DNA from: Candidatus Poribacteria bacterium
Lineage (GTDB): Bacteria; Poribacteria; WGA-4E; UBA9662
Length of the DNA stretch: 16,068 nucleotides
NCBI GenBank assembly: GCA_036339735.1
Contig: JAYZAL010000089.1
Location: forward strand, 1 to 16,068
Reading direction: 5' to 3'
Positions 2-15,603 of the stretch are shown piece by piece (within the stretch, counting starts at the first letter, position 1; each line of letters begins with the position of its first letter). Made by a program: the position numbers and the translations under genes. The notes beneath the pieces were generated by a model. It had not been told where the DNA came from. It worked only from the letters and a program-made list of their open reading frames with translations, and ran no database searches.

Positions 2-2461
2 GACAGTAGTGAATTTAATGTGCCAAGGTTAATTATATCAAGTAACGCGCCTGGCAATGGAACAACCATCATCCTAATCAACTTAGAGGTTGGACAGCTA
101 AGTATACCAACTGAAACAAACTTGATGGTGGTGGAAGGATACGTAGAAAAAACCTCAGCTCAGGTTTATGAGAATTTGAGCGTTGGTATTTGGATTGAGA
201 GGGGAATTGAAGTAGATGCCGACGATGACGGACTTGAAGATAGCTGGGAAGAATATCACTTTAATAATGATCTGACATTTACTGATGGAAGTCAGGATTC
301 AGATGGGGACGATCAAGACAACTGGGCCGAATTTCATGGTCGTAGTGATCCCAACGATGCTTCATCTTTACCCAGATACTTCGAGGATGTTCCTGTCAAT
401 AATGATGGATCTTACCGAATGTTACTAGCTAATTTGCCAACCGGGCCTGAGCCAGTACTAGAATTAACATCAATTTGGGATAGCAATTCACCTGTGGTTG
501 CTGCAGGAGATACCATATTTGTTTACTTGGATGATCAAGCAGACAAAGGTAGTGATGAGGAGTCCTACCGAATCACCTCTACGGATATACAGGATAACTT
601 TATACAAATTGATCTAGAAGCCGTTATGACTATCAGTAAGTCAATTCCCATCAAAGGATTCGACGACCCAGTTGTTTTAACCATTACTGATCAAATCGTA
701 GGTCTTAAACAACCACCGAGAATTCAGCAAGTTCGAACGGCTGAGCAAGAGAGAATGGTAACCAAATTACAGATTGGTATACAACAAGGTCAACCTGCAC
801 GACAAATTGAAACAGTACTGAAAATTGAAGTGCCAGGAACTACAAATACTGGTATCGGTGGCATTTTTCATGAAACTCCATTAGGAATTGAAATTCCGTT
901 TGACACTAATAAAGCTGAACCTGTTGATGTTATTGCATTAATTTCAATTGATTCAGTAAATAGGTCCGAAACCGTGGAAATTTTAGAGACTGAGATTATT
1001 GGTAATAAATTGAGGGCACAATTAGCTCATCTCAGTTATGTAGTAACCATGAAAAATACAGCACCCGTTTTTCATGCCAGCCAAGCCAACGAGTCTCTAG
1101 AAGCAATAGGAGCGACCGAAGATATTCAGCTGAGCGCTAGGATGCTGGCTGCTACTGCAGGTAGCGACAGTCAGTTGCTTAACTTGGACGGGATGTTCAG
1201 CGACAGCGACTCTGAAATTGGAGATCAAATGACTTATGAAGCCACTTCAGATAACCCTGAATTGCTCAATGTTGCTGTAGTTGAAGGCGAAGTCATGCAA
1301 TTAATGCTAGAAACTACTGATGACAAGAGTCAGGAGGGAATAGCTGAAATTTCTATCTTAGTTGAGGATACCAATGGTGCAACCAGCCAAGCCTTGATTT
1401 TTTATGTCGATGTTGCTAGTGTTTTGCCTGATCACTGGCAGGATGGAATAGACTTGCAGTTAGGTTTGAACTTATTCTCTTTGCCACTACAACCAATTAA
1501 TCAAATTGGTGAATTAGAACAATGGACAGCAGCAGACCTAGCCGATAAAATTCCTGCTACGGTGATTGTTTCTATGGATAATGGGCAATTTGTTCCTTTT
1601 ATTCCACAAGTAATGAAGAACAATGACGGTTCTTATTTAGATCAAGGCTTCGACCTTGAGGGTGGCAAGGCGTATATTATCAATGTCATGGACGACCTAA
1701 CCCTAACGCTGAACGGCCAACCATGGTCGAATTCGCCGAGTTCTGAAGGTCTTGCCCAACCTCTTAGAAGTACAGAAACAAATTTTGATGATAGTTCAGT
1801 TAGACGTGCACCAAACAGAGTTTTGGCACCTTGGACATTTGTTATCAGTGGAGATTTGATTACCGATTCTGCTTTGAGTTTCGGCTTTGATTTATCTCAG
1901 GTATCCCGTATTGTAGCTGTTGACACACGAACTGGTAAAGAATTAATCGGACAACTAAAAGGCAACCGGTTCCACTTTGTCCTGGCTGATTTAACTATGC
2001 AGCCGGTGGTTATGGATGGGCAATCCTTCGATATCAGGGCCGAAGGTGTAGATGGGAACCTAATTGCAGGCCCCTTCAATTGGCAGCTGAATGCTGACCA
2101 TTTACAGCAAGCATATATTCATCAAGAAATGACGATTGGTGATGTAATCCCCAGTCAAACTCAACTCTTACCCAACTATCCTAATCCGTTTAACCCTGAG
2201 ACTTGGATCCCGTTCGAGTTAGAGCAAGCTAGCAACGTACAGCTGATAATTTTTGACAGCCAAGGACATATTATTAGACAGCTTGATCTAGGACATCAAA
2301 TAGCTGGCCGATACTTGTCCAAAAGTCGAGCGGCTTATTGGGATGGGTATAACAAGTTAGGCGAACAAGTTAGTAGTGGTGTCTATTTCTATACTTTTAT
2401 TGCTGAATCTGAACAGTCGAAATGGTTACCCCAAACTCGAAAGATGGTAATCCTGAAGTAG
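2..2461 (+). CDS. Large multidomain secreted/surface protein with T9SS type A-like (FlgD-Ig) C-terminal domain; 5' truncated by the window edge
   Basis: The frame is open upstream of the GTG at 20 (GAC AGT AGT GAA TTT AAT GTG), so the true start is probably outside the window. Modules: acidic DxDDDG..D.WE...DSDGD...N..E....DP repeat (215-367); ZU5-like segment ending AHLSY (~630-1050); cadherin/Ig-like NTAPVF...FSDSD..D.MTY...ISILVED (~1055-1415); GLNLFSLPL...GQPW domain (1451-1726); PWTFVISG domain (1829-2140); C-terminal LLPNYPNPFNPETWIPF...WDG.N..G..V.SGVYFY...RKMVILK. Confidence 0.85.
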   Translation, partial: DSSEFNVPRLIISSNAPGNGTTIILINLEVGQLSIPTETNLMVVEGYVEKTSAQVYENLSVGIWIERGIEVDADDDGLEDSWEEYHFNNDLTFTDGSQDSDGDDQDNWAEFHGRSDPNDASSLPRYFEDVPVNNDGSYRMLLANLPTGPEPVLELTSIWDSNSPVVAAGDTIFVYLDDQADKGSDEESYRITSTDIQDNFIQIDLEAVMTISKSIPIKGFDDPVVLTITDQIVGLKQPPRIQQVRTAEQERMVTKLQIGIQQGQPARQIETVLKIEVPGTTNTGIGGIFHETPLGIEIPFDTNKAEPVDVIALISIDSVNRSETVEILETEIIGNKLRAQLAHLSYVVTMKNTAPVFHASQANESLEAIGATEDIQLSARMLAATAGSDSQLLNLDGMFSDSDSEIGDQMTYEATSDNPELLNVAVVEGEVMQLMLETTDDKSQEGIAEISILVEDTNGATSQALIFYVDVASVLPDHWQDGIDLQLGLNLFSLPLQPINQIGELEQWTAADLADKIPATVIVSMDNGQFVPFIPQVMKNNDGSYLDQGFDLEGGKAYIINVMDDLTLTLNGQPWSNSPSSEGLAQPLRSTETNFDDSSVRRAPNRVLAPWTFVISGDLITDSALSFGFDLSQVSRIVAVDTRTGKELIGQLKGNRFHFVLADLTMQPVVMDGQSFDIRAEGVDGNLIAGPFNWQLNADHLQQAYIHQEMTIGDVIPSQTQLLPNYPNPFNPETWIPFELEQASNVQLIIFDSQGHIIRQLDLGHQIAGRYLSKSRAAYWDGYNKLGEQVSSGVYFYTFIAESEQSKWLPQTRKMVILK

Positions 2462-2464
2462 GAA

Positions 2465-4213
2465 ATGATGATGGTAAAACGATTGACAATTGGTCTTTTT
2501 GTTACCTTACTGACTATATGGTGTAGTTTGGTCAACGCAGATGAATCACCCGTACACTCTTACACTCGCAGTTTTGAACTCGATCTTGACGTTGGGGTAA
2601 ATATGATTTCTATGCCCTTGAATGTTAATAGAATTCAAAAAGATGGTAGTTGGATGGCTATTTCAGAATCTGCCGGTACAATGGTTGGAGGCTTGAAACT
2701 TCAAGACGGAGAAGTTCTTCGTATGTTAGGGAATATGCCAACCATTCCAATATCTACTGATGCTGAGGTGGAACCGTATTTTTCTTCACCTGCTGCTGAT
2801 AGTCCGCCTACTGAACAGCTTAATGTGAGTGAAATGGTGATCGTGGATATCCATAGAGCGGATAGTATTTTCAATACCATTGGTGCATCAATTTTCGGTA
2901 CTTATGCCTACGATCCGGTCAGTGATCAGCTAATTCCGGTTACTTTCAACTCGGATGATAATACTTCTATTGAGGTCCCAGAGACACCTTCTATTTCAGT
3001 GGCCGAATTGGACCCTCCATTTGCTAACAGGTTAGAGGGAGGCACACTTTTCCTAGATGCAAACAATGGGCAATCTGTCTTGTACGATCCGAATGATACC
3101 GCTAATGATATTTCACGGCCCAACAATGAAAGTGGTGTCAACATTTATCAAGGAACACAAGACTACGTTGTTAATGGGAAAATCACTAGATTTTTTGCTC
3201 ACGAGAGAGGACAAAACACTTTAGTTCCAGTAAAACCAGTGTGGCTTGAGCGAGAAGGCGAAAGCTTAACTGCGAGTCAGTTAGCTGATTCAATGAATAC
3301 GTCTTGGGTAATTCGGTTAGATCAATCGGATGGCCGTTTCAAAGCTTATATTCCTCAAGCGTCAACGGAAGAAATGGATTTCTCACTGGAATCCGGCAAA
3401 GGTTATTTGGTTAATGTAATCGGATCACTAGGAACCTCTACGAAGGTCCGATTGGAAGGAATGCCTTGGGGAACACCGATCTTTGCTGAAGATTCAATTC
3501 CCCTCAATTCAGATGAAGATCTACTTCTACCGGATGAGATAGCAGGAGATGAACCTCCACGGACTTTGGCCGCACCTTCGGTTCAAGAAACAGCCCCTTG
3601 GGCTTTTGTAGTCAGTGGTCATATTGCTGGTATGGTAACAGAACAGACTGAAATTGTTGTAACAAACTTACGAACTGGGGTTTCAACTCCATCGACTGTT
3701 TCAGTTGGTAAATCAACAATAACTAACATAAGTCGGCCCAGTTATACGGCAGTTTTTGTTGATCCGGATCGACAACCATTGGTAAGTTCAGGAGATGTCT
3801 ACCAAGTTACCATCATTGACCCACGAATTGATCCTATCCAACATCAGTTTCGAGTTGAATCAACTCACTTATCAGCAGCTCACTTAACGGCCAATACTCA
3901 ATTGTCGGCGCAGGTGCCACAAATAACACAACTGGGCCAAAACTATCCCAACCCATTTAATCCTGAAACTTGGATACCATTCCAACTGCATCAGTCAGCC
4001 GATGTTTCAGTTACTATTTACAGCGTAGTTGGTACCATGGTTAGGCAAATCTCGGTTGGTTTTCGTTCAGCTGGAAGTTATCAATCAATGGGTCGAGCAG
4101 TCTACTGGGATGGTAGGACTGATTACGGCGAAATGGTTGCCAGTGGTGTTTATTTCTATACTCTTCAGGCTGGAGACTTCACTGCTAACCGGCGGTTGGT
4201 TATTCTCAAGTAA
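2465..4213 (+). CDS. Secreted protein with T9SS type A-like C-terminal domain, sharing a three-domain C-terminal cassette with the upstream gene
   Basis: 582 aa, 3 nt after the upstream stop. Sec-type signal peptide (KRLTIGLFVTLLTIWCSLVNA|DE). C-terminus QNYPNPFNPETWIPFQL...WDGRTDYGEMVASGVYFYTL...RRLVILK. The GVNMISMPL, GKGYLVNV, GMPW and APWAFVVSG motifs match the upstream protein. Confidence 0.87.
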   Translation: MMMVKRLTIGLFVTLLTIWCSLVNADESPVHSYTRSFELDLDVGVNMISMPLNVNRIQKDGSWMAISESAGTMVGGLKLQDGEVLRMLGNMPTIPISTDAEVEPYFSSPAADSPPTEQLNVSEMVIVDIHRADSIFNTIGASIFGTYAYDPVSDQLIPVTFNSDDNTSIEVPETPSISVAELDPPFANRLEGGTLFLDANNGQSVLYDPNDTANDISRPNNESGVNIYQGTQDYVVNGKITRFFAHERGQNTLVPVKPVWLEREGESLTASQLADSMNTSWVIRLDQSDGRFKAYIPQASTEEMDFSLESGKGYLVNVIGSLGTSTKVRLEGMPWGTPIFAEDSIPLNSDEDLLLPDEIAGDEPPRTLAAPSVQETAPWAFVVSGHIAGMVTEQTEIVVTNLRTGVSTPSTVSVGKSTITNISRPSYTAVFVDPDRQPLVSSGDVYQVTIIDPRIDPIQHQFRVESTHLSAAHLTANTQLSAQVPQITQLGQNYPNPFNPETWIPFQLHQSADVSVTIYSVVGTMVRQISVGFRSAGSYQSMGRAVYWDGRTDYGEMVASGVYFYTLQAGDFTANRRLVILK

Positions 4214-8996: not shown

Positions 8997-11900
8997 ATGT
9001 CTTCTATTTCCACCATTTTGGTACGTAGACTTGTTCTATTTGTTGGTTGGCTTTGGATTAATAGCTTTCCATGTTTAGCTCAGGAAGTTTCTTTCAACCG
9101 AGATGTATTACCAATTCTGTCGGATAACTGTTTTCAGTGCCATGGCCCTGACCAGAATACACGTCAGGCTGGACTAAGGCTCGACCAAGAGTTGTCGGTT
9201 CTACGTCGAGAAAACCCAATTATTCAGGCTGGAGATGTTGAAAATAGCCAACTGATAGATCGAATTACAACCCCAAACTTGTCCCGGCTGATGCCACCAG
9301 TATCCTCAAAACTGAAACTGAGCCGTCAACAAATCGAAACCTTAAAAAAATGGATCAGTCAGGGCGCCAAGTGGAATGATCACTGGTCTTTCGTTCCACT
9401 GAGCAAACCTGATGTGCCGACTGCCTCCGGTCAGTTTTCGGTTCAAAACGAGATTGACCAGTTTATTCAGCATAGGTTAGCTTTCAATCAGCTAACGCCT
9501 TCCCCTCGGGCTGATAAAGCGACCCTAATACGAAGAGTAACGATGGATTTAACTGGGTTGCCACCAACAGTCGAAGAAATTGATAATTTTCTAGCAAAAA
9601 CATCTGAAGATTCTTATGAAATGTTAGTTGATAATTTGTTGTCTAGTGAAGCACATGCAGAACGATTAACTCTAGACTGGATGGATTTGGCTCGTTATGC
9701 CGACTCTCATGGTATGCACGCCGACGGATGGCGACGGATGTGGCCATGGAGGGATTGGGTAATTTCGGCTTTCCAGCAGAATATGCCGTATGACCAATTT
9801 GTGACGTGGCAATTAGCAGGGGACCTTCTACCTAATGCCAGCCAAGAGCAAATTTTGGCTACCGCTTTTCACCGCAATCACCCAATGACAGCCGAAGGTG
9901 GTGTCATTGATGAGGAATTTCGGCTTTATTATGTTTTCGATCGAGTTGAAACAACATCTACAGCTTTTCTGGGGCTGACCATGAATTGTGCTCGTTGCCA
10001 CGATCACAAATTTGACCCAATAACACAAAAGGAATATTACCAACTGTCGGCTTTCTTTAATAATGTCCGTGAACTTGGAATGACTGGTGATGACGGAAAC
10101 TATGGGCCAGTCTTAGCTTTACCAGAAGAACATGTAGCAAAACAGCTAGATCTACTTGATCAAAAAATACAATTCTTGGACAAGCAGTTGGATCAAGTTG
10201 AGCAACAAGCACAATCTGAATTTGCTAAATTGGATCAGTTGCCTTCTATCAATCCTGAATTCCTAGATACTATGGTGGTAGAGAAGTTCCCGTTGGAAAA
10301 GATTGTTTCCGTTGATGTAGAGGGAAAAATAATACAAGCTGTTGACGGTAATGTGAAGTCTACAGTATCTGTTTCTCCCCAGCCGATAGATGGAATTGAC
10401 GGAAATGCTTTGTGGATTGACGGTGAATATCAACACTTAGCACTCAAAAACGTTGGTGATATAGATGTAGCCAATCCAGTGACAGTTTCTCTCTGGATCA
10501 AACCCACACGGGATAATCAGGTTAAAGATCCATCCCAATTAACCAACCAGACTTTACTAGGAACTTCTGGTGGAAAAAACCAGTATTGGCGCGGTTGGGA
10601 ACTCTATCTTGATCCTCAAGGGCACTTAGCTGTTCGTTTAATTCACAATTTACCCGACAATTTGATCCATGTTCGATCAATTGATCCGATAACTGGAGTA
10701 GATTGGCAGCACGTCACTTGGTCCTACAATGGAATTGGCCAAGCTAGTGGAGTAGGTCTGTTTGTCAATGGTCGACCGATTGATACAGAAATTATTATTG
10801 ACCAACTAACTCGAACCATCTTGCCAGAAAATGGTACCGCCAGAAGCGTCAGGGTAGGACGAAGTTACCGCGGGTTTACTGGTGATTTTGGCATTTATCG
10901 AGGTGGAATGGATGATATTCATTTCTACCAATCATCCTTAACTGAGCTAGAAGTTGCACAGCTGTATGCCTCTTATCAACAAGCCAAAATTGACTACAAT
11001 CCAACAACAGAAAGCCAGTTTCAACACTGGCTGAGTCGAAATCATACTGAATGGCCAGCAAAAATGGCCGAATACCGTGAGCTACAAAAGCAGCGAATCG
11101 AATTGTTCAGCCAAGTAGATTTGGTCATGGTGATGGAAGAAATGGATTCAGTACGACCAACGCACCTACTACATCGTGGCGAATATAACCAACCACGTAA
11201 ATTAGTGGAAATGGGAACCCCCTCTGCTATTGCGGATTTTCCTGACGACTTGCCAAATAATCGGTTAGGTTTAGCCAAGTGGCTATTTGCACCGACCAAT
11301 CCGTTAACAGCCCGAGTGACTGTCAATCGATACTGGCAAATGTTGTTTGGGCATGGACTCGTACGTACACCACATGACTTCGGGATACAGGGCCAAAGGC
11401 CAACGCACCCTCAATTATTGGATTGGTTGGCGATAAAATTTCGAGATTCAGGTTGGAATGTTCGCCATTTACTTAAGTTAATCGTAACCTCAGCCACTTA
11501 CCAGCAATCATCTGGAGTTAATGTCGCGTCAGACCAAACTGATCCAGAAAATCGGCTCCTATGGAGATCCCCCACTTATCGTTGGCCTGCTGAGTTTTTA
11601 CGTGATAACGCTTTAGCTAGTAGTGGAGTTTTGGTAAAACAAGTGGGTGGGCCCAGTGTAAAACCTTACCAGCCTGAAGGGTTATGGATCGAAAAGAACA
11701 ACTTCTCTGCCAAGCTGAGAAATTACCAAATTGATGATGGGGATTCGCTTTACCGTCGGAGCCTGTATACTTTCGTTCGTCGAACCTCACCACCACCTTC
11801 CATGATTACATTAGATGCACCTAATCGTAGCGTTTGTACAGTCAAGCGTGTTATTACCAATACGCCGCTACAGGCTTTAGTAATGATGAACGATCCGCAG

Positions 11901-12215
11901 TTTATCGAGTCAGCCCGAATCCTAGCTGAGCATATCCAGCGGCGGATTTCGTACGGAGATAGTTTATCTAAAGGAATAACAGAAATGTTTCAGCGATTAA
12001 CTGGACACCAGCCGCTCTCTAATCAAATCAAGTTGCTAGAAACTTATTATCAAAACAATTATCAGAAGTTTGTGGCTAACCAATCTTCTGTTCAATCTTT
12101 ATTGGCAGTTGGTGAGTATCCGCTTGACAAAACTTTGCCTGCCACTGAAATAGCAGCGTTGACAGTAGTGGCGAATCTGATTATGAACTACGACGGTTTC
12201 TATATGAAACGGTAA
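8997..12215 (+). CDS. Planctomycete-type cytochrome c protein (PSCyt1 + DUF1549 + LamG-like insert + DUF1553/PSD1)
   Basis: Signal peptide, then VSFNRDVLPILSDNCFQCHGPD (CxxCH 9129-9143); LIRRVTMDLTGLPPT, WMDLARYADS, CARCHDHKFDPI (CxxCH 9987-10001); LamG-like region ~10281-10970 (VSLWIKP, WQHVTWSYNG, GGMDDIHFY); RLGLAKW...NPLTARVTVNRYWQ, HPQLLDWLA, YRRSLYT, TNTPLQAL. Confidence 0.93.
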   Translation: MSSISTILVRRLVLFVGWLWINSFPCLAQEVSFNRDVLPILSDNCFQCHGPDQNTRQAGLRLDQELSVLRRENPIIQAGDVENSQLIDRITTPNLSRLMPPVSSKLKLSRQQIETLKKWISQGAKWNDHWSFVPLSKPDVPTASGQFSVQNEIDQFIQHRLAFNQLTPSPRADKATLIRRVTMDLTGLPPTVEEIDNFLAKTSEDSYEMLVDNLLSSEAHAERLTLDWMDLARYADSHGMHADGWRRMWPWRDWVISAFQQNMPYDQFVTWQLAGDLLPNASQEQILATAFHRNHPMTAEGGVIDEEFRLYYVFDRVETTSTAFLGLTMNCARCHDHKFDPITQKEYYQLSAFFNNVRELGMTGDDGNYGPVLALPEEHVAKQLDLLDQKIQFLDKQLDQVEQQAQSEFAKLDQLPSINPEFLDTMVVEKFPLEKIVSVDVEGKIIQAVDGNVKSTVSVSPQPIDGIDGNALWIDGEYQHLALKNVGDIDVANPVTVSLWIKPTRDNQVKDPSQLTNQTLLGTSGGKNQYWRGWELYLDPQGHLAVRLIHNLPDNLIHVRSIDPITGVDWQHVTWSYNGIGQASGVGLFVNGRPIDTEIIIDQLTRTILPENGTARSVRVGRSYRGFTGDFGIYRGGMDDIHFYQSSLTELEVAQLYASYQQAKIDYNPTTESQFQHWLSRNHTEWPAKMAEYRELQKQRIELFSQVDLVMVMEEMDSVRPTHLLHRGEYNQPRKLVEMGTPSAIADFPDDLPNNRLGLAKWLFAPTNPLTARVTVNRYWQMLFGHGLVRTPHDFGIQGQRPTHPQLLDWLAIKFRDSGWNVRHLLKLIVTSATYQQSSGVNVASDQTDPENRLLWRSPTYRWPAEFLRDNALASSGVLVKQVGGPSVKPYQPEGLWIEKNNFSAKLRNYQIDDGDSLYRRSLYTFVRRTSPPPSMITLDAPNRSVCTVKRVITNTPLQALVMMNDPQFIESARILAEHIQRRISYGDSLSKGITEMFQRLTGHQPLSNQIKLLETYYQNNYQKFVANQSSVQSLLAVGEYPLDKTLPATEIAALTVVANLIMNYDGFYMKR

Positions 12216-12242
12216 CGAAGTGTACAAAAATAAGGAACACGC

Positions 12243-13697
12243 ATGGTAAAACCGAATCCTATCCAATGCCAAAATATTGATCCAAATTACTCTCGTCGAA
12301 AGTTTTTGAACCAAACCTCACTTGGGCTTGGTGCCGTAGCATTTGCTAATTTGGCTAATTCTTCACCAGGTACAGGAGCGTCAAAAACTGGTGTCTTAGG
12401 ACAACCACACACCATGCCGAAAGCCAAAAGAGTAATTTATTTATTCCAAAGTGGCGGACCTTCTCAATTGGAATTATTCGATTATAAATCTAAACTCCTT
12501 AAGCTAAGAGGGCAAGATTTACCAGAATCAGTCCGCAAAGGCCAGCGACTAACCGGTATGACTTCTGGGCAAGCGACATTTCCGTTGACCAGCTCAATTT
12601 TTGATTTTTCACAACATGGTAAGTCTGGAGCTTGGGTTAGTGAGCTACTCCCTCATACTGCTGAGATTGTAGATAAACTCTGTTTTATTAAATCAATGCA
12701 TACCGATGCCATTAATCATGATCCTGCATCGACTTTTATTCAAACAGGATCGCAATTGCCTGGCCGTCCCTCGATTGGTTCTTGGCTGAGTTATGGATTG
12801 GGTAGTAGTAATGAAAATTTACCCAGTTTCGTAGTTTTGGTTACTAAAAATAAGAATGGTCAGCCACTCTATGCTCGGTTATGGGGCAATGGTTTTTTGC
12901 CCTCCCAACATCAGGGAGTTCAGTTTCGAGCTGGGAAAAACCCTGTACTTTACCTCCGTAATCCAGATGGTATTGATAAAGAGGCCCGTCGTCAGCAAAT
13001 GGAATATTTACGGCAATTACAAGAGATTCAATATCAAAAAACCGGTGATGTGGAAGTATTGGAGCGTATGTCCCAATATGAGATGGCTTTTCGTATGCAG
13101 ACCTCGGTACCGAAAGCCACAGACGTCTCAGATGAGCCAGACTCTACTTTTGAAAATTATGGACCTGACTCGAGAGAACCAGGCACTTACGCTGCTAATT
13201 GCTTGTTAGCTCGCCGTTTAATCGAAAGGGGTGTTCGTTTTGTCCAGCTTTATCATCGAGGCTGGGACCATCACGGTGGATTACCTGACAATATTCGCCG
13301 CCAATGTCAAGAAACAGACCAAGCATCCGCAGCTTTGGTCATCGACTTAGAACAACGTGGCTTATTGGACGACACTTTAGTCATCTGGGGTGGTGAATTT
13401 GGCCGTACTTGCTACTCGCAAGGCCGCCTGACTGAAACTAATTATGGGCGAGATCATCACCCGCGTTGTTTTAGTTTATGGATGGCTGGTGGTGGGGTTA
13501 AAGCTGGATATACTCATGGGTCTACTGATGACTTTAGTTATAATATCACTGAAGACCCCGTCCATATTCATGATTTTCAGGCTACCTTGCTCCACTTACT
13601 TGGTATCGATCATCAACAGCTGACCTACAAATTTCAAGGCCGTCGCTATCGGTTAACTGATGTGCACGGCCGTATCGTCCAACAAGTATTAGCCTAG
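12243..13697 (+). CDS. DUF1501 domain protein with Tat signal (partner of the DUF1549/DUF1553 cytochrome)
   Basis: Twin-arginine SRRKFL (12291-12308); AKRVIYLFQSGGPSQLELFDYK, CLLARRLIERGVRFVQL, WDHH, DTLVIWGGEFGRT, GRDHHP, WMAGGGVKAG, RLTDVHG. RBS AAGGA upstream. Confidence 0.93.
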   Translation: MVKPNPIQCQNIDPNYSRRKFLNQTSLGLGAVAFANLANSSPGTGASKTGVLGQPHTMPKAKRVIYLFQSGGPSQLELFDYKSKLLKLRGQDLPESVRKGQRLTGMTSGQATFPLTSSIFDFSQHGKSGAWVSELLPHTAEIVDKLCFIKSMHTDAINHDPASTFIQTGSQLPGRPSIGSWLSYGLGSSNENLPSFVVLVTKNKNGQPLYARLWGNGFLPSQHQGVQFRAGKNPVLYLRNPDGIDKEARRQQMEYLRQLQEIQYQKTGDVEVLERMSQYEMAFRMQTSVPKATDVSDEPDSTFENYGPDSREPGTYAANCLLARRLIERGVRFVQLYHRGWDHHGGLPDNIRRQCQETDQASAALVIDLEQRGLLDDTLVIWGGEFGRTCYSQGRLTETNYGRDHHPRCFSLWMAGGGVKAGYTHGSTDDFSYNITEDPVHIHDFQATLLHLLGIDHQQLTYKFQGRRYRLTDVHGRIVQQVLA

Positions 13698-13818: not shown

Positions 13819-13928
13819 ACGAGGCGTTCACGACCTGTTGATTCGTTCGGTTCAGTCTATTGATCGTAGACGGTCGTTGTTCTGTTGTTACTTTCAAATT
13901 AATACCAAATATGATGGAGACTATTTTT

Positions 13929-14687
13929 ATGATCCAAAGATCTAAGATTACCGCCTTTGCTACGATACTGTTGGTTATTTGCGGTATGGTGTCAGTTCAA
14001 GCTGCATTGGACGATAGTGTTGTTTTGTATATTTCATTTGACGGCGGTGAAGCTGCTGATCATTCATCCTACGGCCATGAAGTTGGGGTTACTGGTGCTG
14101 AAATAGGTGCTGGTAAATACGGTAATGGGATTGTTTTGGGCGAAGGTAAATTTCTCGAAGTTCCGGATGATGACAGTTTGGATTTGACCACGGCTCTGTC
14201 TATCAGTATGTGGGCTAAGGTCGCAGCTGGTGGCGAAGGGACTCAGAGCGGTTTAGAAAAGCAACCAGCTTGGCAGGCAGGTGAATACAACTTGGCCGCA
14301 GTCTACGGCGGTGGCGTGTTATTACAAGCTGCCGACTGGCCTGCTGCTTGTGCAGATACAAACGTTACTCCAGAAGGCATAGAAGATGATAACTGGCATC
14401 ATATTGCCGGTACATGGGACGGTAAAGTTATCAAAGTCTACATTGACGGCGTATTAAAAGCGGAGAAAGACTGTGTCGGTGAGATCAAGGTTGGTGATGG
14501 AAACCTGTATATCGGTTCTCGTGGTGGGAAACAGCGTTGGTTGAATGGTTCCTTGGACGAAATCAAAGTCTTCAATAGAGCATTGAGTGCTGATGAAGTT
14601 AAAGCTGATATGGCTAAAACCGCGACTGCGGTTCAAGCTAAATCCAAGTTAGCCGTTTCTTGGGGCAAGATCAAGACTGCCAACTAA
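13929..14687 (+). CDS. Secreted LamG-like jellyroll (concanavalin A-like) protein with short C-terminal W-G-K-I-K tail (252 aa)
   Basis: Start moved to ATG 13929 (GGAG at 13916-13919). Signal peptide ending VQA|A; VVLYISFDG, GKYGNG, DSLDLT..LSISMW, WHHIAGTWDG, LYIG, GSLDEIKVFNRALS; tail AVQAKSKLAVSWGKIKTAN. Confidence 0.9.
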   Translation: MIQRSKITAFATILLVICGMVSVQAALDDSVVLYISFDGGEAADHSSYGHEVGVTGAEIGAGKYGNGIVLGEGKFLEVPDDDSLDLTTALSISMWAKVAAGGEGTQSGLEKQPAWQAGEYNLAAVYGGGVLLQAADWPAACADTNVTPEGIEDDNWHHIAGTWDGKVIKVYIDGVLKAEKDCVGEIKVGDGNLYIGSRGGKQRWLNGSLDEIKVFNRALSADEVKADMAKTATAVQAKSKLAVSWGKIKTAN

Positions 14688-14705
14688 TACCTTGTCTAAA
14701 TGTGT

Positions 14706-14752
14706 ATCGAGTATCGTGCTGTGACAATCAGAATCGTAGTACGATGCTCGAT
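14706..14752 (+). other. 19-bp intergenic RNA stem-loop between the LamG paralogues
   Basis: 14706-14724 pairs with 14734-14752: 15 Watson-Crick and 4 G-U pairs, no mismatches, 9-nt loop, no U-tract. Confidence 0.75.
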
Positions 14753-14814
14753 CAAAGAAACTTGGTCATTTCCTTTCACTTTTCAAAAAAAACAATTTAG
14801 GAGAACAGATCTTA

Positions 14815-15603
14815 GTGGTATTGAGAATTATAAATAAGTCGACACTTGTTGTTTTTTTGTATTTGTTGACAGTTACCCCATTTACATTTGCGGCCGTAGA
14901 TCCAACAATTGTTCTTTATTTACCTTTTGAAGAACAGGAGGGGAAGGTTGCAAAAGATCTATCACAATTTGGACATAAAGCTGAGTTTCGTAAGAAAACG
15001 GCTTGGTCTGGAGATGGTAAACAAGGTGGTTGTATAAAGCTTGGCCTTGGTAATTGGTTAGAAGTAAAAGATCATGATAGCTTAGATTTGACCAATAAGA
15101 TGACGATTATGCTTTGGGCAAAGCTGATGCGGCAAACCGGAGAAGTACAAAGTGGAGTAGAAAAAGAACCCGCATGGCAGGCAGGAGAATATAATCTTTT
15201 ACCTGAGTATGGCGGTGGAATTTTATTACAAGCCAATGATTGGCCTGACGAGTGCGACGATGAAGCGATTGGTGGGCCTCCTATAATTGATAAGAAATGG
15301 CATCACTGCGCGGGAACTTTCGACGGTAAGGTGATAAAAATATACAATGACGGAAAATTAGCTAAAGAATTGCCGTGTAAAGGATCTGTCGAGAAGGGCA
15401 GTGGTAATTTGTATATTGGTTGCCGCGGAGGTAGTGGTCGTTGGATTGACGGTTTCTTAGACGAAATTAAGATGTATAACCGAGTTCTAACTCAAGATGA
15501 GATCGCGGCAGACATGGAAGATTCCATGCACAACTTAGCGGTCTCGCCTAAAGATAAGGTTAGTACTACTTGGGCTTCTCTTAAGAAAGAAATTTTACAT
15601 TAG
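14815..15603 (+). CDS. Secreted LamG-like jellyroll protein, tandem paralogue of the upstream gene
   Basis: AGGAG at 14799-14803 and GTG start. Signal peptide ending TFA|A; VLYLPFEE, DSLDLT..MTIMLW, WHHCAGTFDG, GFLDEIKMYNRVLT; tail AVSPKDKVSTTWASLKKEILH. Confidence 0.9.
   Translation: MVLRIINKSTLVVFLYLLTVTPFTFAAVDPTIVLYLPFEEQEGKVAKDLSQFGHKAEFRKKTAWSGDGKQGGCIKLGLGNWLEVKDHDSLDLTNKMTIMLWAKLMRQTGEVQSGVEKEPAWQAGEYNLLPEYGGGILLQANDWPDECDDEAIGGPPIIDKKWHHCAGTFDGKVIKIYNDGKLAKELPCKGSVEKGSGNLYIGCRGGSGRWIDGFLDEIKMYNRVLTQDEIAADMEDSMHNLAVSPKDKVSTTWASLKKEILH

Follow-up and report, generated by a model that had tools for sequence, protein, structure and literature searches.

The host protein and its module

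The protein considered here is encoded at the start of a 16,068-nucleotide stretch of DNA from Candidatus Poribacteria bacterium (the window), which constitutes the entire contig JAYZAL010000089.1 (C89) of assembly GCA_036339735.1 and whose features, as described below, lie on the forward strand. The first open reading frame (ORF), P0001, extends from position 2 to 2461 in frame 2, with a stop codon at 2459-2461, and specifies 819 amino acids. Within it, residues 208-351 (nucleotides 623-1054) form a beta-sandwich module that very probably adopts a divergent ZU5-superfamily fold, a superfamily comprising ZU5 domains, subdomain B of GAIN domains with its G-protein-coupled receptor (GPCR) proteolysis site (GPS), FIIND and the Nup98 autoproteolytic domain. 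The tripeptide H343-L344-S345 (codons CAT CTC AGT, 1028-1036) would correspond to P2-P1-P1' of a cis-autoproteolytic site. Judging from the models, the alignments and the fold comparisons, we put the probability that the module cleaves itself in cis at the predicted L344|S345 bond (nucleotides 1033/1034), through an N-to-O acyl shift, at roughly 0.6. A preliminary description of this DNA had proposed a self-cleaving module here, with GGIFHETPLGIEIPFD starting at nucleotide 857 and HLS at 1028-1036; these coordinates are exact in the frame 2 translation, and the interpretation is supported by the analysis below, with cleavage itself as a prediction.

Because the window is the whole contig and the ORF is open at its 5' end, the N-terminus of P0001 is absent, and the 819 residues make up the C-terminal portion of a large protein, secreted or on the surface. 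At full length, orthologues measure 1089 amino acids (P0002, with 'Candidatus Poribacteria bacterium' as its NCBI source) and 1661 amino acids (P0012), the latter carrying ASH/HYDIN-type Ig domains in its N-terminal region. Upstream of the module, P0001 has acidic Asp-rich repeats (residues 71-125, nucleotides 212-376) that read as the type DxDxDG...W..F.G.DPND and that we take to be probably calcium-binding; DADDDGLEDSWEEY... and DSDGDDQDNWAEFHGRSDPND among them resemble thrombospondin-type-3 or calcium-binding linkers. The NCBIfam model NF042425 (Amuc_1099-like) matches residues 96-143 weakly (E 6.2e-5, 22.7 bits, cut-off 50). Directly upstream of the module follows a small domain, YFEDVPVNNDGSYRMLL... 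(residues 126-207, nucleotides 377-620), which had no match in the Pfam scan and is repeated 9-11 times in the giant proteins P0006 (3552 amino acids) and P0008 (2290 amino acids).

The boundaries of the module come from a 14-row profile alignment of its family (A3), from AlphaFold models and from fold searches; A3 itself matches nucleotides 623-1066 with E 2.7e-35. The family motif that ranks second in conservation is the core PL.I.IPF of GGIFHETPLGIEIPFD (residues 286-301, nucleotides 857-904), in which P293 and P299 are invariant. Further downstream, KLRAQLAHLSYVVT (residues 336-349) contains HLS, and SYVVTMK (residues 345-351, nucleotides 1034-1054) is the last beta-strand in both models. 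Behind the module (1055-1480) lies a domain of cadherin-like or bacterial Ig-like type, which starts with the linker N-T-A-P-V-F, its N and P being invariant in A3, and which Pfam Big_9 matches below cut-off (E 0.012 for the domain by itself; E 0.1, at residues 393-465, within the full sequence). Next come a domain of about 230 amino acids of unknown family (1481-2176) and a C-terminal sorting domain like type A of the T9SS (type IX secretion system; residues 726-819, nucleotides 2177-2458). The latter scores 31.2 bits with PF13860 (cut-off 27), 18.1 bits with PF18962 (cut-off 27) and 21.9 bits with TIGR04183 (cut-off 23), the last rising to 25.3 bits, over its cut-off, in the genome scan. In the whole protein, Pfam and NCBIfam returned nothing on residues 208-350, their matches being the C-terminal tail, the weak Big_9 and the weak Amuc_1099-like region.

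Directly downstream of P0001 lies a gene for a paralogous secreted protein of 582 amino acids with a signal-peptide-like N-terminus (2465-4213). It has the same C-terminal half, including the 230-residue domain and the sorting tail (32% identity to residues 494-819 of P0001, E 1e-47), and has no ZU5-like module.

Predicted fold and conservation of the H-L-S turn

AlphaFold2 models were made for residues 208-365 of the window copy, with a 17-row alignment, and for a paralogue from genome G058 (L011:1252-1719, 26% identical), with an 18-row alignment. Both are beta-sandwiches. The window copy reached a predicted local distance difference test (pLDDT) of 65.5 and a predicted template modelling score (pTM) of 0.64, and the paralogue 91.2 and 0.84. 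The segment that had been called beta-rich has 11 strands and three short helices in the window model (H32-36, H39-43 and H78-84), and the paralogue has the short helix H57-60. The models of residues 208-365 contain no helical subdomain, the upstream residues 126-207 lying outside them. In both models H136-L137-S138 (model numbering, equivalent to residues 343-345) forms the turn that joins strand 129-134 to the last strand (139-143). The preliminary description had counted HLS outside such a turn, or an ordinary Ig fold, as evidence against itself, and the models and fold searches show neither.

Two independent structural searches point to the ZU5 superfamily. VIA-align, run against 48,161 representative chains, gave for the window model the values 8.8 with the CELSR1 GAIN domain, 8.7 with AnkB ZU5, 8.5 with the BAI3 GAIN domain, 8.4 with CD97, 8.3 with Gpr126, 7.6 with ankyrin ZU5A-B, 7.2 each with GPR56 and CARD8, 6.0 and 5.7 with NLRP1 FIIND and 5.3 with UNC5b, so that ZU5, GAIN or FIIND entries make up 13 of the top 20 rows. 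For the paralogue model they fill 11 of the top 13, with ankyrin ZU5A-B at 9.8 (138 residues aligned, root-mean-square deviation 4.5), AnkB at 9.6, ZU5-ANK at 9.2 (119 aligned, root-mean-square deviation 3.0), CD97 at 9.0, CELSR1 at 8.9, CARD8 at 8.7 and GPR56 at 8.0; ZO-1 ZU5 (4.5) and Nup98 (4.2) score lower. Values in the same range also occur outside these families, in two axonemal chains (9.0-9.2) and in GH66 dextranase sandwiches (about 7). At the head of the Foldseek list stand, each with probability 1.00, the BAI3 GAIN domain at E 3.2e-3 and ankyrin ZU5 at E 5.9e-3; none of its matches reached E 1e-3.

The structural alignments also place the tripeptide. In the VIA-align results of both models, the alignment stops at model residue 137 (Leu344) together with the last listed chain residue of seven cleaved chains, namely 5kvm_A (382), 6x6c_E (1212), 6v55_A (827), 7qu8_A (249), 8vti_A (854), 8hc0_A (566) and 7crv_C (187). 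Model Leu137 thus pairs with L382 of GPR56 and F1212 of NLRP1, both P1 residues. GPR56 is cut at H381-L382/T383 and cleavage is abolished by H381S or T383G (PMC13123842); in NLRP1, the ZU5 subdomain spans F1079-F1212, with UPA beginning at S1213. The other five chain ends, to judge from where the chains stop, would be P1 residues as well. HLS conforms to the pattern H/S-[FL]-[ST], precedes the last strand as a turn and, in these alignments, matches P2-P1-P1' of the cleaved members.

A tripeptide of this kind is not unusual in itself. By composition, 0.198 occurrences of H-[LF]-[ST] are expected in 819 residues (probability of at least one, 0.18), and one is observed. What lifts HLS above chance is its retention in distant copies together with its structural position. 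We aligned 18 non-identical copies (A4), which are 16-79%, mostly 23-33%, identical to the window copy. Both A3 and A4 leave out L003 and L010, which are near-identical to the window copy and L009; L007, which contains X from N bases, and P0007, which is close to L004, were also left out. Across A4 the His is kept in 15 of 18 rows, the Leu in 17 and the Ser in 16, contrary to the loss of H and S that would have spoken against self-cleavage. In A3, no row departs from L137 or S138, and conservation of H136 is 90% or more, which makes the three residues some of the very few invariant or near-invariant columns in a family just 23-33% identical. HLS is also present in six copies outside A4 (P0002, P0012, P0007, L003, L007 and L010), and in phmmer alignments of copies that are elsewhere 26-39% identical, conservation is highest in HLSY[VIL]x[TSGA]x[KHRSV]N..P. 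The codons have turned over synonymously at all three positions: in 14 HLS-bearing DNA copies the Ser is AGT in seven and AGC in seven, the His CAT or CAC and the Leu CTC, CTG, TTA or TTG. Gly and Thr are each a single base away from the AGY codons for Ser, yet they are present only in a degenerate copy.

Three rows of A4 deviate, with Q-L-S in P0011, Q-P-G in L029, which also has a large insertion, and E-L-N in P0003. The last of these forms the final three residues of a fragmentary protein on a contig of 3635 bases, and its full-length relative P0012, 79% identical, has A-H-L-S. For these two reasons P0003 is not strong counter-evidence.

The region could, in principle, be an ordinary Ig-like or cadherin-like domain whose last strand and N-x-A-P-x-F linker form a domain junction, with HLS there by chance. 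The low information content of a single tripeptide would be compatible with this, as would the weak Big_9 and Cadherin_5 matches in P0001 and its paralogues, and the linker KNTAPVF is like those between cadherin domains. However, both fold searches are headed by ZU5, GAIN and FIIND rather than Ig or cadherin chains, the Big_9 match falls downstream of the module (residues 393-465), and HLS is kept across copies only 23-33% identical. We have rejected this reading on those three grounds and consider it very improbable.

The phylum also contains ZU5 domains that Pfam does recognize. Of 176 genomes from the phylum, 24 contain a PF00791 match above cut-off, never at the HLS module; these domains belong to other families (f3, f4, f9 and f11), and two marginal matches occur among the six other genomes of the window's family. 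Ten of them, aligned as A5, end in N-H-[FL]-[GA].Y.LM, one having Y-L-S instead. An hhalign comparison of A3 with A5 aligned the two collinearly over 100 columns and matched the His of HLS to that of NH[FL]G, at low significance (P 0.043, probability 1.2). The preliminary description had equated GGIFHETPLGIEIPFD with the N-terminal signature strand of ZU5. To go by this weak comparison and by the aligned ranges in the VIA-align searches, that assignment is probably out of register, and GGIFHETPLGIEIPFD would be a central strand. The counterpart of the ZU5 signature GG..sP.Gv.l.lP.gA is probably IVGLKQPP (residues 232-239, nucleotides 695-718), which coincides with model strand E24-29. The Pfam-positive proteins inspected (L039-L053) are about 360-440 or about 2900 amino acids long, and their ZU5 domains are followed, as read from their sequences, by a domain like FlgD-Ig or a T9SS tail; they would represent a second, nucleophile-less ZU5 family tied to the same kind of tail.

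These relatives bear directly on whether the HLS module is catalytic. It may be a ZU5-like sandwich that does not cleave, a structural or binding module in which the H-L-S turn is kept for folding geometry, and we regard this as quite possible, though less probable than cleavage. In the phylum's PF00791 domains, which end N-H-[FL]-[GA]..Y.LM and have no P1' nucleophile, the turn is kept without catalysis; a conserved His-hydrophobic-small turn can therefore be structural, and conservation of H-L alone is no proof of catalysis. The loss of H or S in three members of the HLS family fits the same idea. On the other hand, 16 of 18 copies have Ser even though a single base change would give Gly or Thr, and even though the phylum's other ZU5 domains make do with Gly or Ala; the retained Ser is the stronger argument for catalysis. 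In addition, all three residues are invariant or nearly so at 23-33% identity, and all three GPS-type residues occur together, aligned with P2-P1-P1' of cleaved structures.

Distribution and genomic context

The HLS module family is small and, on the genomes searched, lineage-restricted. A phmmer search with residues 126-360 against 1.84 billion representative sequences returned 10 proteins at E up to 1e-3. Two of these, P0006 and P0008, are matched solely in the upstream NNDGSY region, and P0009 was set aside. Word-indexed searches returned three proteins with residues 126-360 and four with A3, the latter among 8000 candidates scored, and because of this number absence elsewhere is weak evidence. 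The full-length orthologues P0002 and P0012 are among the proteins found. Among the 176 genomes of the phylum, the single sequence matches seven, all in family f1, and A3 finds the module in 7 of 7 f1 genomes at 16 places (E 4e-46 to 2e-9). Outside f1, A3 produced four marginal matches (E 9e-4 to 9e-3); these were not counted as members, the two that were inspected being partial profile matches that fall short of the HLS end. The module thus appears confined to one family of the phylum, with no convincing occurrence elsewhere in the 176 genomes.

Within this family the module occurs in very different proteins. The window genome (G000) has two copies, one in P0001 and one at residues 1374-1514 of a 3854-amino-acid open frame on contig C27. 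This second frame (L034, G000:C27:2466-14027, reverse strand) has a hydrophobic segment at its N-terminus. Besides the HLS module it carries PD40 repeats, Ig-like and cadherin-like domains and, at residues 1863-2100, an FGE-sulfatase domain. Scans of its sequence and its genome found no T9SS tail match in it, which indicates that the module is not tied to such a tail. One open frame of G058 holds three module copies about 440 amino acids apart. In the same genome, the frame of L004 (G058:C108) has at residue 123 the motif DVDHFTDFFVATGQ, about 550 amino acids upstream of its HLS module, which could be a further ZU5-like site of the H-F-T kind.

The tail of P0001 has company in its genome. TIGR04183 gives 42 matches in the window genome. 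Two large ORFs there are PorU-like (C25-type), with 281 and 273 bits against a cut-off of 420, and one of 2176 amino acids is SprA-like (65 bits, cut-off 200); from these a T9SS-like export route is plausible, not established. Proteins with type A tails lose them in Bacteroidota and become attached to anionic lipopolysaccharide (PMC4804311, PMC9143113). The same genes suggest that P0001 might instead be cut in trans, the exposed turn being recognized by a protease that is secreted or associated with the T9SS, given that T9SS cargo in Bacteroidota undergoes proteolytic processing and that this genome combines two PorU-like proteins with 42 tails. We think this exceedingly unlikely. The motif and its position are those of cis-cleavage in structurally matching families, the data give no hint of a trans-acting enzyme, and PorU works at the sorting tail and not in mid-protein (PMC4804311).

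Between 4492 and 8987 of the window lie two GFO/IDH/MocA oxidoreductases, a xylose-isomerase-like TIM-barrel protein and a LOG-type ('possible lysine decarboxylase') protein, which look like an ordinary sugar or inositol-type metabolic cluster. A PSCyt1-PSCyt2-Laminin_G_3-PSD1 protein (1072 amino acids) and a DUF1501 protein (484 amino acids) follow at 8997-13697, a pair typical of Planctomycetes-like genomes, and 13860-15603 holds a tandem pair of small, secreted Laminin_G_3 (concanavalin-like) paralogues, 275 and 262 amino acids long.

Proposed cleavage and comparison with known systems

If the module cleaves itself, the reaction would be the one used by its structural relatives. The hydroxyl of Ser345, activated by His343, would attack the carbonyl of Leu344 in an N-to-O acyl shift, and hydrolysis of the resulting ester would break the chain between L344 and S345. 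By analogy with FIIND and GAIN, the new N-terminal strand SYVVTMK would stay in the sandwich and the two fragments would be held together non-covalently. The C-terminal fragment would consist of the cadherin-like domain, the 230-residue domain and the T9SS-type tail, and would be the cell-proximal piece if the tail works as in Bacteroidota. The N-terminal fragment, with the acidic repeats and, in full-length orthologues, the Ig-like ASH/HYDIN-type domains, would be distal and might be shed or pulled off.

Several observations count against self-cleavage or against the assignment on which it builds. Many ZU5 domains are not known to cleave, including those of ankyrin, UNC5 and ZO-1. An uncleaved GAIN domain has been crystallized as well, according to the title of entry 8oek. 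The phylum's own ZU5 domains keep N-H-[FL] and continue with G or A, without the nucleophile, and the HLS family has its three deviating copies. The module has no Cys, and the 'CxH' motif of the superfamily described by Zhang et al. is therefore absent. Sequence searches gave no direct link to the superfamily: Pfam at E up to 10 found no ZU5, GPS, Nup98 or other model in 17 family members, PF00791 had no match in the window genome and none on P0001 up to E 1, a profile search of PDB sequences returned one irrelevant match (E 0.47), and the hhalign support for the ZU5 link is poor. A feature search of the ESM Atlas yielded unnamed clusters only, with scores of at most 0.90. The model of the window copy is itself moderately confident, 40 of its residues having pLDDT below 50. 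Finally, anchoring through the tail is putative in this phylum, the PorU-like and SprA-like genes lying below curated cut-offs.

In animals, adhesion-GPCR activation, inflammasome firing and PIDDosome assembly are under the control of autoproteolytic ZU5, GAIN and FIIND domains. Sequence analysis has led to the proposal that these domains arose in bacteria (PMC3482391, PMC8195603). In the literature on bacterial, T9SS or adhesin ZU5 and GAIN domains we found neither the HLS family, relatives of which may be listed in Additional File 1 of PMC3482391, nor a biochemical demonstration of such cleavage in a bacterial surface protein or adhesin. With about 145 residues, no disulfides, one confident model and a full H-L-S, the module is a convenient test of the GPS-type reaction in bacteria.

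The large adhesins and surface enzymes of this lineage, if the module cleaves, would be two-piece proteins joined by one beta-strand, and their shedding, turnover and proteomic detection would have to be re-read. A further step would be to see in the HLS family a bacterial counterpart of the GAIN/Stachel joint, self-cleaved, non-covalent and force-sensitive, in T9SS-type adhesins and giant surface enzymes. We hold this to be rather unlikely; if it were true, tension would cause the distal part to be dropped, or would expose SYVVTMK as a signal or binding element. The family would then also provide the first bacterial member of the ZU5 superfamily with a biochemically demonstrable H-L|S reaction of the GPS type, and would bear on the bacterial origin proposed for the animal domains. 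Without cleavage, the module would join the non-catalytic ZU5-like sandwiches and be of local interest only.

Autoproteolysis in an extracytoplasmic bacterial protein has a precedent in the anti-sigma factor RsgI of Clostridium thermocellum, whose periplasmic domain undergoes functional autoproteolysis with the fragments staying associated. RsgI belongs to a different protein family and acts in transmembrane signalling, and it is absent from the VIA-align results of both models. Closer at hand, the Pfam-positive ZU5 domains of the phylum resemble P0001 in being followed by sequence like FlgD-Ig or a T9SS tail and in the alignment, albeit weak, of 100 columns with the His in register, and differ in their N-H-[FL]-[GA] end, mostly without a nucleophile, where the HLS family has Ser.

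As a kind, the module is already known, since bacterial ZU5 autopeptidases were predicted in 2012. Zhang, Aravind and colleagues predicted ZU5 autopeptidase domains in large bacterial cell-surface proteins and put forward the idea that surface proteins may be processed in this way in general (PMC3482391). Like the proteins described there, a paralogue carrying the HLS module has PD40 and FGE-sulfatase domains. Those domains were found with ZU5 profiles, which the HLS family escapes, and have a C-terminal CxH thiol motif, whereas the HLS family is free of Cys and has H-L-S in its place. The new member of the ZU5 superfamily is therefore a lineage-restricted, Cys-free H-L-S family in cargo of the T9SS type.

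Among eukaryotic systems, the beta-sandwich is common to the module, to the ZU5 domains of ankyrin, UNC5 and PIDD and to the ZU5 subdomain of FIIND in NLRP1 and CARD8. In contrast to these cytoplasmic animal domains, the module is extracellular and bacterial, has no PF00791 match, and is probably followed by a cadherin-like or Ig-like domain (weak Big_9) instead of UPA or a death domain. Its H-L-S also differs from the S-F-S of NLRP1, which relies on a distal His; the motif of PIDD is H-F-S. In the GAIN/GPS domains of adhesion GPCRs and polycystin-1, the GPS motif is rich in Cys and Trp around H-L-[ST]. The module shares no detectable sequence similarity with them; its residues 208-365 contain neither Cys nor Trp, with Leu two positions before the His, and within the same modelled residues it has no helical subdomain A. 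It has no seven-transmembrane (7TM) region either. Lacking a helical subdomain within residues 208-365, Cys and Trp, and a 7TM region, the module is nearer to a stand-alone ZU5 domain than to a GAIN domain.

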